Source: Kiloniellaceae bacterium (GTDB lineage: Bacteria; Pseudomonadota; Alphaproteobacteria; Kiloniellales; J153). Taken from it: a stretch of DNA of 64,000 nt. This document shows positions 58,598 to 61,620 of this stretch, one piece after another. The DNA is taken from the NCBI GenBank assembly GCA_046758005.1, contig JBHHZJ010000006.1:634-64633 (forward strand), in the 5' to 3' direction. Made by a program: the position numbers and the translations under genes. Below the pieces are notes generated by a model, which saw only the letters and a program-made list of their open reading frames with translations, made no database searches and was not told where the DNA came from. The first letter of the stretch is position 1; each line of letters begins with the position of its first letter.

Positions 58598-59360
58598 GCG
58601 GCGCGGGCCCGCGCCGCGCGGCGACGCCGCGGCGGGGGTGCGCGGCCCGTCGATCCTGCCGCTGCGCCTCGCCGGCGTCAGCTACGAGGCGGGCGGCAAG
58701 CGCCTGATCGACGACATTTCGCTGGACCTGGCGGCCGGCCCGCGCAGCGTCGTCCTGGGGCCCAACGGGGCGGGCAAGAGCCTGCTCTTGCGCCTGTGCC
58801 ACGGCCTGATCGGCCCCAGCGCCGGGCGCATCTCCTGGGCCGGCCCGGCCGGCCCCGAGGTCCGGCGCCGCCAGGCCATGGTGTTTCAGCAGCCGGTGCT
58901 GCTGCGCCGCTCGGTGGCGCTGAACGTGGCCTATCCCTTGCGCCTGCGCGGCGTGCCCGGGCGGGAGCGGCGCGCGCGCGTCGAGGAGGCGCTGGCGAAG
59001 GCCGGCCTCGCCGCCCTGGCCGGGCAGCCGGCCCGGACGCTGTCCGGCGGCGAGCAGCAGCGCCTGGCGATCGCGCGCGCCTGGGCGCCGCGCCCCGACG
59101 TGCTGTTCCTCGACGAGCCGACCTCGAACCTCGACCCGGCGGCGACCCGGGCGGTCGAGGACCTGATCCTGACCGTGCACGCGAGCGGCACCAAGATCGT
59201 GATGACCACCCACGACCTGGGCCAGGCGCGCCGGCTGGCCGACGAAATCCTGTTCCTGCACCGTGGCCGCCTGCTCGAACGCACGGCCGCGCAGCGCTTC
59301 TTCACCGCGCCGCGCACGGCCGAGGCGGCCGCCTTCATCAAGGGAGACCTGATATGGTGA
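58572..59360 (+). CDS. tupC: Tungstate ABC transporter ATPase TupC
   Basis: GPNGAGKS, LSGGEQQR, FLDEPT; between tupB and tupA. Confidence 0.9.
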   Translation: MSRAPATAERRGPAPRGDAAAGVRGPSILPLRLAGVSYEAGGKRLIDDISLDLAAGPRSVVLGPNGAGKSLLLRLCHGLIGPSAGRISWAGPAGPEVRRRQAMVFQQPVLLRRSVALNVAYPLRLRGVPGRERRARVEEALAKAGLAALAGQPARTLSGGEQQRLAIARAWAPRPDVLFLDEPTSNLDPAATRAVEDLILTVHASGTKIVMTTHDLGQARRLADEILFLHRGRLLERTAAQRFFTAPRTAEAAAFIKGDLIW

Positions 59361-60184
59361 CGAGACGCGCTTTCCTGTCGGCTGTTTTGCTTGCCACCGT
59401 TCTGTGCGCTCCGGCGTGGGCCGGGGAGCGTTTCATCACGGTGGCCTCGACGACCTCGACCGAGAACTCGGGCCTGTTCGACTACATCCTGCCCCTGTTC
59501 GAGCGCCAGACCGGCATCCAGGTGCGCGTCGTCGCGGTCGGCACGGGCCAGGCGATCAAGATCGCCAGAAACGGCGACGCCGACGTGCTCTTCGTGCACC
59601 ACCGGCCCTCGGAGGAGAAATTCGTCGCGGAGGGGCATGGGGTGAAACGCTTCGACGTCATGTTCAACGACTTCGTCCTCATCGGCCCGAGGTCCGATCC
59701 GGCCGGGGTCGGCGGCCTGCGCGAGGCCGCGGCGGCGCTGAGGAAGATCGCCGCGGCGCGGGCCGTGTTCGTCTCGCGCGGCGACGACAGCGGCACGCAC
59801 AAGAAGGAGCTGAGCCTGTGGACCGACGCCGGCGTAGACCCGGCGGCGGCGAGCGGGACCTGGTACCGCGAGACCGGCTCGGGCATGGGCGCCACGCTCA
59901 ACACCGCCGCGGCGCTCGGGGCCTACGCGCTCGCCGACCGCGGCACCTGGATCAGCTTCGCCAACAAGGGCGACCTGAGCGTGCTGGTCGAAGGCGACGC
60001 GCGCCTGTTCAACCCCTACGGCGTGATCCTGGTCAACCCGGCCAGGCACCCGCACGTCAAGGCCAAGGACGGCCGGGCGTTCATCGACTGGCTGACCTCG
60101 CAGACCGGGCAGCGCGCGATCGCCGACTTCCGCGTGAACGGCCAGCAGCTGTTCTTCCCCAACGCGCGCGAGCCGGCCTCGTGA
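59354..60184 (+). CDS. tupA: Tungstate ABC transporter binding protein TupA
   Basis: ASTTSTENSGL, VGTGQA, FVSRGDDSGTH, GSGMG, DRGTW. Confidence 0.93.
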   Translation: MVTRRAFLSAVLLATVLCAPAWAGERFITVASTTSTENSGLFDYILPLFERQTGIQVRVVAVGTGQAIKIARNGDADVLFVHHRPSEEKFVAEGHGVKRFDVMFNDFVLIGPRSDPAGVGGLREAAAALRKIAAARAVFVSRGDDSGTHKKELSLWTDAGVDPAAASGTWYRETGSGMGATLNTAAALGAYALADRGTWISFANKGDLSVLVEGDARLFNPYGVILVNPARHPHVKAKDGRAFIDWLTSQTGQRAIADFRVNGQQLFFPNAREPAS

Positions 60185-60214
60185 CGGGGAAACAACTTTC
60201 CGAAATCCATCATT

Positions 60215-60244
60215 GTCATGCGCGGGCTTGACCCGCGCATCCAT
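60215..60244 (+). repeat. REP palindrome, left arm of the GIY-YIG cassette
   Basis: GTC-ATGCGCGGG-CTTGA-CCCGCGCAT-CCAT; exact reverse complement of 60556-60585. Confidence 0.92.
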
Positions 60245-60264
60245 CGCCGTGTCATGCTCGGACG

Positions 60265-60552
60265 GTGCCGTACTACGTGTACATACTTGCGAGCCGTCCA
60301 TACGGATCGTTGTACGTCGGCGTCACGAACGATGTCATCCGCCGTGTTTGTGAGCACAGGGATGGGCTCGTCGATGGATTCACGAAACGATATGGCGTGA
60401 AGACGCTCGTACACTTTGAGGCGTACGACGAGGCCGGGACCGCGATCCAGCGCGAGAAGACCATCAAGCATTGGAAGCGGGACTGGAAAATCGCCTTGAT
60501 CGAACGAGACAATCCGCATTGGGATGATCTGTACGAACGCCTGTGCGGCTGA
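60265..60552 (+). CDS. Stand-alone GIY-YIG nuclease (95 aa)
   Basis: YVYILAS...LYVGVT...RRVCEH...FTKRY...AIQREK.IK.W.R.WK..LIE..NP.W.DLY. Confidence 0.92.
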   Translation: MPYYVYILASRPYGSLYVGVTNDVIRRVCEHRDGLVDGFTKRYGVKTLVHFEAYDEAGTAIQREKTIKHWKRDWKIALIERDNPHWDDLYERLCG

Positions 60553-60555
60553 GGA

Positions 60556-60585
60556 ATGGATGCGCGGGTCAAGCCCGCGCATGAC
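60556..60585 (-). repeat. REP palindrome, right arm of the GIY-YIG cassette
   Basis: ATGGATGCGCGGGTCAAGCCCGCGCATGAC followed by G, giving a CGTC tag on the minus strand; starts 3 nt after the nuclease stop. Confidence 0.92.
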
Positions 60586-60609
60586 GAAATTGGCAGCGAT
60601 GGGGTCGTC

Positions 60610-61620
60610 ATGACGACTGAAACCATGCGCGCGATGGTGCTGGAGCGGGCGCGGGCGCCGCTGCGCCTGGAGGAACGTCCGGTGCCGGAACCGGGCCCCG
60701 AGCAGGTGCTGGTGCGGGTGCGTGCCTGCGGCGTGTGCCGCACCGACCTGCACGTGGTCGATGGCGAGCTGCCGCACCCAAAACTCCCGCTCGTGCCCGG
60801 CCACGAGGTGGTCGGCACCGTGGCCGCCCGCGGCCGCCACGTCGAGCGCTTCGCGGAGGGCGCGCGCATCGGCATCCCGTGGCTGGGGTGGACCTGCGGG
60901 ACCTGCCGCTTCTGCCGCGCCGGGCGGGAGAACCTGTGCGCGCGGGCCAAGTTCACCGGCTACACGCTCGACGGCGGTTACGCCGAGTATGCGCTGGTCG
61001 ATCAGCGCTACGCCTTTCCGATCCACGGGCGGTACAGCGACGCCGAGGCGGCGCCGCTGCTGTGCGCGGGGCTGATCGGCTATCGCTCGCTGCGCCTGGC
61101 GGGCGAGGCCGAGCGGCTCGGCCTGTACGGCTTCGGCGCGGCCGCGCACATCGTCGCGCAGGTCGCGCGCTATCAGGGCCGGCGCGTGTTCGCCTTCACC
61201 CGCCCGGGCGACGAAGCGGCCAAGGCCTTCGCGCGCGACATGGGGGCGGTGTGGGCCGGCGATTCGAGCGAGGCGCCGCCGGAGGAGTTGGACGCGGCGA
61301 TCATTTACGCCCCGGTCGGGGCGCTGGTGCCGGCGGCGCTGCGCGCGGTCGCGCCGGGCGGCACCGTGGTGTGCGCCGGCATCCACATGAGCGACATCCC
61401 GCGCTTCCCTTACGAGATCCTGTGGCGCGAGCGCAAGGTGCTCTCGGTCGCCAACCTGACCCGGCGCGACGGCGAGGAGTTCCTGGCGCTCGCCCCCGAG
61501 GCGGGCGTCGAGACCGCGGTCGAGCCGATGCCGCTCGAAGAGGCCGACGAGGCGCTCGCCCGCCTGCGCGAGGGGCGCCTGCGCGGCGCCGCGGTGCTGA
61601 CGATGGGCGGGGCGGAGTGA
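60610..61620 (+). CDS. Zinc-dependent alcohol dehydrogenase family protein
   Basis: CGVCRTDLH, PGHEVVG, CGTCRFC...ENLC, LLCAGLIGY, GFGAAA; start at 60610 or 60625. Confidence 0.93.
   Translation: MTTETMRAMVLERARAPLRLEERPVPEPGPEQVLVRVRACGVCRTDLHVVDGELPHPKLPLVPGHEVVGTVAARGRHVERFAEGARIGIPWLGWTCGTCRFCRAGRENLCARAKFTGYTLDGGYAEYALVDQRYAFPIHGRYSDAEAAPLLCAGLIGYRSLRLAGEAERLGLYGFGAAAHIVAQVARYQGRRVFAFTRPGDEAAKAFARDMGAVWAGDSSEAPPEELDAAIIYAPVGALVPAALRAVAPGGTVVCAGIHMSDIPRFPYEILWRERKVLSVANLTRRDGEEFLALAPEAGVETAVEPMPLEEADEALARLREGRLRGAAVLTMGGAE

Follow-up and report, generated by a model that had tools for sequence, protein, structure and literature searches.

Positions 60,215 to 60,585 of a 64,000-nt stretch of DNA from a Kiloniellaceae bacterium (contig JBHHZJ010000006.1; the whole stretch is hereafter called the window) hold a 371-bp unit in which a short GIY-YIG nuclease gene lies between two inverted copies of a repetitive extragenic palindromic (REP) hairpin. 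Sequence comparison suggests that this is very probably a canonical SRM-ssn-SRM unit (SRM, Ssn-related motif), i.e., a gene of the Ssn family of site-specific single-stranded DNA (ssDNA) endonucleases between two cognate inverted hairpins with a CGTC-type tag, and an old, vertically inherited resident of its site. The arrangement was already described in 2025 (Chenal et al. 2025, Nat Commun 16:2388, PMC11893778), and the locus is a well-preserved further Ssn member with an unlisted stem type. We would annotate it as a putative Ssn-type ssDNA endonuclease gene with two cognate hairpins and a predicted new stem specificity, in a family that has been proposed as a source of ssDNA tools. The unit had been singled out by an earlier reading of the window (the original prediction), whose description of a REP, a 95-aa GIY-YIG open reading frame (ORF) and an inverted REP between tupA and an alcohol dehydrogenase gene was correct in every particular.

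A nuclease gene between two inverted hairpins

The two arms of the unit (60215..60244, plus strand, and 60556..60585, minus strand) are 30 nt each and lie 311 nt apart, the right arm being the exact reverse complement of the left (complementarity 100%). Each is built as GTC + ATGCGCGGG + CTTGA + CCCGCGCAT + CCAT, that is, a tag, a 9-bp stem enclosing the loop CTTGA, and the tail CCAT. One base further out, the tag reads TGTC at the left arm and CGTC at the right arm (on the minus strand). In both arms the tag points outward and the tail points towards the gene. Folded as ssDNA, each arm forms a hairpin with a 9-bp stem and a 5-nt loop at -12.5 kcal/mol, with z-scores against 200 shuffles of -2.75 for the left arm and -3.54 for the right. 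The ssn-like gene between them (60265..60552, plus strand) has a GTG start and encodes a 95-aa protein with GIY-YIG as its single domain (PF01541, E 9.8e-12, 45.4 bits against a cut-off of 22.6, residues 3-75). Two metagenome contigs (X1 and X2) span the unit without variants. The GC content of the element is 58.8%, that of the genome 69.2%. As predicted, its codons are less GC-biased than those of its neighbors: GC at third codon positions (GC3) is 72% in the nuclease ORF versus 94% in both the tupA-like gene and the alcohol dehydrogenase gene (adh).

Relation to the Ssn family and to CGTC REPs

As described by Chenal et al. (2025; PMC11893778), Ssn proteins are single-domain GIY-YIG, site-specific ssDNA endonucleases (CDD cd10448, GIY-YIG_unchar_3); SsnA of Neisseria meningitidis has 94 aa, and the published family set was restricted to proteins of at most 150 aa. 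Their genes are flanked by hairpin repeats, which are NTS (CGTCATTCCCGCGMAVGCGGGAATCYRG, including dRS3), NTSvar (CGTCATACTCGGGNNNNNCCCGAGTATC) or the looser SRM. The SRM search motif, HGTCWYN(0-2)YYVSBRHN(0-5)WNVSBRGN(0-2)RNCYNB, was found at least once near 71% of the homologues and on both sides (within 500 bp of the gene) in 42%, and of the 169 genomes in which SRMs number more than 200, 137 encode a homologue. SsnA binds the hairpin as ssDNA only and cuts upstream by a few nucleotides, within the variable flank; it is inactive on double-stranded DNA, on RNA and on the reverse strand, and its cleavage is abolished by Y6A, Y17A and E64A. Binding depends most on the C right after the palindrome, and cleavage on the 3 nt ahead of it; activity is lost when the stem sequence is changed with the hairpin kept. 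Three more Ssn homologues cut near their own repeats, and in N. meningitidis the Ssn system modulates natural transformation (Chenal et al. 2025).

The window protein fits this description of the family in size (95 aa, versus 94 aa in the published description of SsnA) and in its lone GIY-YIG domain. Across 26 aligned homologues, in the numbering of the window protein, Y17, G19, R27, H31 and E64 are invariant and Y6 is present in at least 90%; Y6, Y17 and E64 carry the same numbers as the catalytic residues of SsnA. The surroundings of the gene are also those of ssn genes, with inverted hairpins bracketing it that have a YGTC tag, a stem starting with AT and a C-rich tail, in the format of NTSvar (9-bp stem, 5-nt loop). 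Moreover, among the best 80 of 588 loci found with homologues (see below), an exact NTS lies beside the gene at three (L049, L063, L102) and an exact NTSvar at one (L090). We therefore hold membership in the Ssn family with high, but not complete, confidence, as judged from sequence. The original prediction had supposed a hairpin-recognizing nuclease, an idea in agreement with the published Ssn biochemistry (Chenal et al. 2025).

The arms belong equally to a superfamily of repeats that was defined independently of any nuclease. Di Nocera, De Gregorio and Rocco (2013; PMC3733652) described CGTC REPs as having a CGTC, TGTC or CCTC tag, a stem of 8-9 bp starting from AT, a loop of 4-5 nt and the tail CCA; they are found mostly in Alphaproteobacteria, their units are paired in inverted orientation, they prefer positions downstream from genes, and in the conclusion reached in 2013 they apparently lacked a dedicated transposase. 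The window arms, with their TGTC/CGTC tags, 9-bp ATGCGCGGG stem, CTTGA loop, CCAT tail and inverted pairing, fall within that definition. The difference is that a GIY-YIG gene is flanked here and in the Ssn paper, whereas no enzyme was reported in 2013. The earlier claim that CGTC-type REPs have no assigned enzyme is thus outdated, since the 2025 paper assigns them a cognate nuclease under the names NTS and SRM. The main text of Chenal et al. (2025), which does not cite Di Nocera et al., appears not to equate SRM and NTS repeats with the CGTC REP superfamily, enzyme-less in 2013. Term searches of a literature collection that leaves subscription journals mostly outside its coverage found no paper joining GIY-YIG to repetitive extragenic palindromic repeats and none naming two of GIY-YIG, UPF0213 and YhbQ, and a search with the same limit for most subscription journals found no later paper naming "Ssn-related motif" or "cd10448".

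Association of nuclease genes and hairpins across phyla

A one-genome-per-species scan confirmed at least 588 of 600 candidate stretches, and we compared the best 80 of the 588 loci; the query alignment consisted of the 15 closest sequences, and the set is biased to the close subfamily. Proteins encoded at these loci match the query alignment with 53-67% identity, and their hosts belong to the Alpha-, Beta-, Gamma- and Deltaproteobacteria, Cyanobacteria, Planctomycetes and candidate phyla. With one representative per 50%-identity cluster, the family as a whole counts 26,622 members at E ≤ 1e-3 and 9,627 at E ≤ 1e-10.

When the two flanks of each gene were compared without any motif, repeats scoring at least 16 were observed in 70 of 78 loci, versus 2 of 147 shifted control intervals; at a score of at least 20, the counts were 59 loci and 2 controls. 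Homologues are present in 17 of 31 related genomes (a tally that includes one unpublished genome), and 23 of the 29 loci there score at least 16 (15/17 close homologues and 8/12 distant ones), each protein subgroup having its own palindrome type. The excess of hairpin-flanked homologues over controls that had been predicted was therefore borne out, and the association of GIY-YIG genes with CGTC hairpins is general across phyla. The main text of the 2025 paper seems not to contain this result, namely an association in about 90% of loci by a motif-free test, as compared with both-sided figures of 42% (in that paper) and 24% (at the loci examined here) for the published motif.

The hairpins themselves are uniform where the published mutagenesis would lead one to expect it. 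A REP detector that demanded only GTC plus a hairpin found 158 REPs at the 80 loci, of which 147 begin with CGTC or TGTC and 135 end with CCA, with stems of 8 or 9 bp. The consensus of 137 flanking REPs has a pyrimidine before GTC (frequency 0.96), A (0.95) and T (0.88) at the start of the stem, and C (0.99), C (0.93) and A (0.93) in the tail, whereas the stem interior is free; it mirrors the mutagenesis published by Chenal et al. (2025), and the tag, the AT at the start of the stem and the CCA tail of the left window arm agree with it. At 34 of the 80 loci both nearest REPs have the tag out and the tail in, one of them 12-50 nt upstream of the start codon and the other 3-25 nt downstream from the stop codon. 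The detector found a REP on one side only at 18 loci, none at 15 and different arrangements at 13, and several of the 15 negative loci have longer hairpins according to the motif-free comparison of flanks. As a side observation, a more distant GIY-YIG subgroup in relatives (~40% identical; L023, L026, L036, L037, L038, L041, L042) is flanked by CCTCATCCTGAGCCTGTCGAAGGATGAGG-like palindromes, which fit the CCTC tag variant of Di Nocera et al. (2013).

History of the element downstream from tupA

The tupA-like gene to the left of the unit is a conserved anchor of the site in relatives, and we compared 13 tupA loci. The element lies intact directly after tupA in four genera, represented by the source genome (G000), G005, G003 and G007. 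Remnants are present in three further genomes: G012 retains the right REP and ~12 nt from the 3' end of the ORF, G004 27 codons, and G010 the left REP and ~4 codons. The other six loci show no trace of the element; tupA lies against adh in three of them (G002, G009, G013), and the remaining three come from other families.

Amino acid identity to the relatives is 72-75% for TupA, 83-86% for the alcohol dehydrogenase and 62-66% for the nuclease. Among the four intact orthologues we estimated pN at 0.17-0.23 and pS at 0.69-0.85, the latter saturated, giving a dN/dS of ~0.1 or less. The two arms of a unit change together: both have the stem ATGCGCGGG here and both have ATGCTCGGG in G007 and G003, a difference of four coordinated changes. 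In the simplest reading, the element at this site is old and vertically inherited, is under purifying selection where intact, and has repeatedly been lost or eroded by deletion. The synteny in four genera, together with the remnants in three genomes, speaks largely against recent mobility at this locus. The originally proposed self-spreading of nuclease and REPs gained no support here, and no other copy of this REP type was found in the genome. At the G005 locus (L002), a second version of ~30 nt of the tupA 3' end, stop codon included, follows the element and precedes the end of a convergent regulator gene; it differs at 2-3 positions, and may have been duplicated at insertion or in a later rearrangement.

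Hairpins and nuclease genes elsewhere in the source genome

The source assembly (3.65 Mb in 205 contigs, 93% complete) is a draft, in which repeats are often unassembled. The exact 30-mer of the arms has two copies in it, both at the gene, even when up to five mismatches are allowed, and the expectation of a common genome-wide REP was not confirmed. The class with the layout GTC-9-5-9-CCA has 33 copies among 80 detector hits. These class REPs are intergenic, and most of them form 13 doublets ~54 nt apart, with tags outward and the stems ATTGCCGG and ACCCTCGCG. The REP class of the arms is thus a real one, but their own stem type is not dispersed in this genome. The doublets measure ~83 bp, tags out and tails in, with halves that differ in stem (e.g., C4:118-200, C7:58663-58745, C11:48712-48794). 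Neither of their stems matches a stem flanking the two ssn-like genes of this genome; REPs of the ATTGCCGG type flank ssn genes in other genomes (L045, L055, L110). The closest genomic relative of the arms (6 mismatches) is a degenerate, gene-less inverted REP pair, 14 nt apart, at G000:C105:8958-9031.

Within its own genome the window gene is exceptional in its flanks. Random intervals of the genome (n=1500, 100-nt flanks) gave a best inverted flank match of 14, and among 2616 crude gene calls with 200-nt flanks the window gene ranks first, with a score of 30, followed by an unrelated palindrome at 22. The sole other homologue in the genome (C109:6905-7452, locus L031) is 57% identical and is bracketed by a 105-108-nt repeat in two direct copies that agree at 91%. 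This repeat is unique to that place in the assembly and contains two palindromes, ATCCCGGATAATCGC...GCGATTTCCGGGAT and CGTCATCCCGGCC...GCCGGGA. The C109 gene ranks second among the 2616 for direct flank repeats, its top peers being tandemly duplicated genes only, so that both GIY-YIG copies of the genome are extreme outliers in flank repeats.

These data bear on one alternative, that a small gene happens to have a REP on each side, for instance as hairpins that stabilize mRNA or terminate transcription. The intergenic position of the class REPs here would suit this explanation, as would the preference of such repeats for sites downstream from genes reported by Di Nocera et al. (2013). It is nonetheless very improbable, given the 70 of 78 flanked homologues against 2 of 147 controls, the first rank among 2616 genes, and arms that are identical to each other and co-vary between orthologous loci. 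The interval 60100-60700 also contains no T-tract terminator-like site and no sigma70-like promoter, although such a scan is weak evidence either way.

Predicted activity and points against the assignment

By homology to SsnA, the window protein would bind its hairpin only while the strand carrying it is single-stranded, would read the GTC tag, the stem and the C that follows it, and would nick a few nucleotides 5' of the tag. Because the arms are inverted, cleavage would fall on the top strand for the left arm and on the bottom strand for the right, with predicted nicks at ~60210 (top) and ~60590 (bottom), just outside the unit. As no other cognate hairpin was found in the genome, such an enzyme would act on its own flanks, have a looser specificity than SsnA, or act on incoming DNA.

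Several observations weigh against the assignment to a canonical SRM-ssn-SRM unit. The activity, strand specificity and cut sites just given are those predicted from SsnA for the window protein. The absence of any further copy of the cognate stem implies an enzyme without a dispersed substrate population in this genome, unlike in Neisseria; the cognate repeat has two copies here, both at the gene, compared with hundreds in pathogenic Neisseria. The host differs as well, being an environmental alphaproteobacterium-like genome with 69% GC. NCBIfam has no family for the nuclease. Flank repeats are missing from 8 of the 78 loci in the motif-free test. The REP type tracks the nuclease tree only modestly within the close subfamily: stem class requires 42 changes, below the minimum of 47 obtained by shuffling (mean 52.8), whereas loop length requires 22, which is not below the shuffled minimum of 21 (mean 27.9).

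Finally, the SRM search motif has no match in 60100-60700. It misses both arms because pair 5 of the ATGCGCGGG stem is G:C where the motif wants Y...R, a single difference that is compensated within the stem. Applied to 74 of the loci L043-L122, the motif is found on both sides at 18 and on one side at 17 more. The SRM motif serves to search rather than to define, and the contrast between 18 of 74 and the motif-free 70 of 78 suggests that the published both-sides figure of 42% probably understates the association.

Retention of the gene over several genera can be read in another way, in which the nuclease is a domesticated host factor that cuts incoming or transient ssDNA carrying its hairpin and so tunes recombination or transformation, as in N. 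meningitidis, the flanking hairpins being relics or autoregulatory sites. Vertical inheritance, a dN/dS of ~0.1 and the single copy of this REP type would be expected of such a factor. We consider it rather unlikely, since the genome has no other cognate hairpin, leaving nothing dispersed to act on unless the specificity is loose, and since the gene has been lost or eroded in at least three related genomes and is absent beside tupA in six more of the 13, a repeated loss that argues against an important host role.

Multiplication of the unit in Sphingomonas

Other genomes differ sharply from the source genome in copy number. In Sphingomonas G031, a complete genome, we found 19 matches to the hidden Markov model of the nuclease, including ~14 full units, 4 matches with an internal stop, and fragments. 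Among the nine closest copies, identity is 95-98% over a stretch that starts ~20 nt ahead of the left REP and ends ~25 nt beyond the right one; it drops to 74% in the 40 nt just upstream and to 25-35% further out. The REP type of this genome has 62 copies, while a reversed control pattern has none and the type itself has none in four other genomes. These REPs occur almost wholly as tag-out pairs, spaced ~374 nt apart with the gene inside, or 80-151 nt apart without it.

The gene-less pairs include a clean internal-deletion derivative of the unit, L157, which combines the 3' 104 nt of the unit (94% identical) with its 5' 70 nt (93%). L160 and L166 are similar, and a 131-nt family retains a leader-like segment. 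In the sister genome G037, six loci share one common junction, at which the first 4 codons are fused to the last ~25 codons; since this junction lies at a 10-nt microhomology, it could have arisen repeatedly. A unit that has multiplied and from which gene-less doublets derive looks like a MITE family (MITE, miniature inverted-repeat transposable element). The main text of Chenal et al. (2025) seems not to report genomes with many near-identical units and deletion derivatives.

Comparison of four Sphingomonas insertions (L133, L125, L135, L139) with G036-G038 gave no clean pair of filled and empty sites, because the intergenic regions differ beyond the element, and neither the termini nor a target duplication could be defined from the copies compared. 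Around the G031 and G037 copies and short derivatives (L125-L146, L153-L167, L174-L179), 40 to more than 100 nt outside the REPs are moderately conserved, and a CCCCGAC(A/T)T(A/T)GC motif is present on both sides. The REP-bounded Sphingomonas unit may form part of a larger composite repeat, or favor a target that is itself repeated. These data show proliferation of the unit; they do not thereby identify Ssn as its catalyst.

Possible origin and spread of SRM-ssn-SRM units

Chenal et al. (2025) remarked that NTS-ssnA-NTS resembles an insertion sequence, and offered a domestication hypothesis by analogy with RAYT transposases. The many-copy genomes turn their remark on an insertion-sequence-like architecture into a testable question, namely by what means repeats could be propagated by a nuclease that works by hydrolysis. 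As background, GIY-YIG enzymes hydrolyze DNA and form no covalent intermediate, so that strand transfer would need host functions.

One answer would be that the unit is a selfish element, autonomous and active now or until recently, in which Ssn nicks its own terminal hairpins and thereby drives the copying of both the unit and the gene-less doublets. The near-identical units of G031, with their 62 tag-out-paired REPs and the derivatives L157, L160 and L166, are in line with this, as are the six G037 loci with one deletion junction, the GC3 of the window gene (72% versus 94% in its neighbors), the presence of proteins 53-67% identical across Alpha-, Beta-, Gamma- and Deltaproteobacteria, Cyanobacteria and Planctomycetes, and predicted cut sites that would bracket the unit. 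We nevertheless regard this as doubtful. The source genome has one unit of its REP type, which is syntenic in four genera and under purifying selection; the hydrolytic chemistry would make strand transfer dependent on the host; the Sphingomonas comparisons yielded no clean filled/empty pair, termini or target duplication; the G037 junction, at its 10-nt microhomology, is possibly recurrent; and another enzyme could mobilize the units in trans.

We tentatively consider a further history, which is somewhat less likely than not. SRM-ssn-SRM units would be, or would recently have been, self-propagating, with Ssn as the partner enzyme of CGTC REPs and the gene-less CGTC REP doublets as MITE-like internal-deletion derivatives. 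Copying initiated by a nick, through homing-like repair or through restart of replication at ssDNA hairpins, would spread them in place of transposase chemistry, and the window locus would be a quiescent master copy of old standing, with its own REP population extinct. The case for self-propagation rests mainly on other genomes, and mobilization of REPs by the nuclease is put forward here as a hypothesis, not as a finding.

Comparison with other systems

The pairing of RAYT (TnpA-REP) transposases with REPs and REPINs is reportedly the subject of work by Nunvar in 2010, by Bertels and Rainey in 2011 and by Ton-Hoang in 2012. The window locus resembles that system in layout and inheritance, and is not a member of it. 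In both, a single-copy, vertically inherited nuclease gene lies between inverted copies of a hairpin that is recognized, here by prediction, as ssDNA, and the gene-less doublets resemble REPINs. The enzymes, however, are a GIY-YIG hydrolase, from which no strand-transfer chemistry is expected, and an HUH Y1 (IS200-like) protein of unrelated fold with a covalent intermediate, and the tags are Y-GTC/CGTC here and GTAG there. The original prediction of a RAYT-like locus with another nuclease stands as to the layout; the HUH transposase and the GTAG tag of RAYT loci have no counterpart here. An insertion sequence or MITE would be expected to show several near-identical copies in unrelated surroundings, with defined ends and a target-site duplication; the source genome has one unit of this REP type, and Sphingomonas G031 and G037 have multi-copy units and deletion derivatives.

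The closest solved sequences are the UPF0213 proteins BH0048 (1zg2, E 5.9e-20) and EF2693 (1ywl, E 3.4e-15), which have the GIY-YIG core in common with the window protein and no assigned function, followed by SLX1 (7cq2, E 0.0029), which shares the core but is larger, partners SLX4 and cuts branched double-stranded DNA structures. In GIY-YIG homing endonucleases of the I-TevI type, the nuclease domain is tethered to a separate DNA-binding domain, and the genes occur in introns or free-standing in phages. We rejected this identity for the window protein, which has no second DNA-binding domain, matches none of the PHROGs families and is encoded in a chromosomal intergenic setting. A phage protein was rejected on the same absence of PHROGs matches, and a defense-system protein was rejected because the nuclease matches none of the PADLOC families.

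Neighboring genes and minor features

The left neighbor, outside the element, is the gene of a TupA-like periplasmic binding protein (59354..60184, plus strand), which matches NCBIfam TupA with 229.8 bits, under the equivalog cut-off of 400; upstream of it are an ABC ATPase gene (PF00005) and an ORF without a Pfam match. The right neighbor, also outside the element, encodes a Zn-dependent alcohol dehydrogenase family protein (60610..61620, plus strand; TIGR02822, 362 bits). The longest ORF for this protein begins at 60556, within the right REP, and its N-terminus MDARVKPAHDE is a pseudo-peptide encoded by the REP. This start is probably an over-call; the domain match begins at 60610. Many cluster representatives of the nuclease family are 120-170 aa long with the GIY-YIG match at the C-terminal end, and may be similar over-calls through an upstream REP.

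Contig joints were also seen in metagenome contigs X6 (a REP-like 26 nt, 36 nt and adh) and X3 (REP, 22 nt, REP); their sides are shorter than 30 nt and come from other organisms, and they were not used as evidence. The leader of the ssn-like gene contains a half-REP relic, TGTCATGCTCGG (60250..60261, plus strand), directly 5' of the start codon, which matches 60214-60225 at 92%. Its stem type is shared with the REPs around the G007 and G003 orthologues; in G005, too, a similar half-REP relic precedes the start codon of the orthologue.

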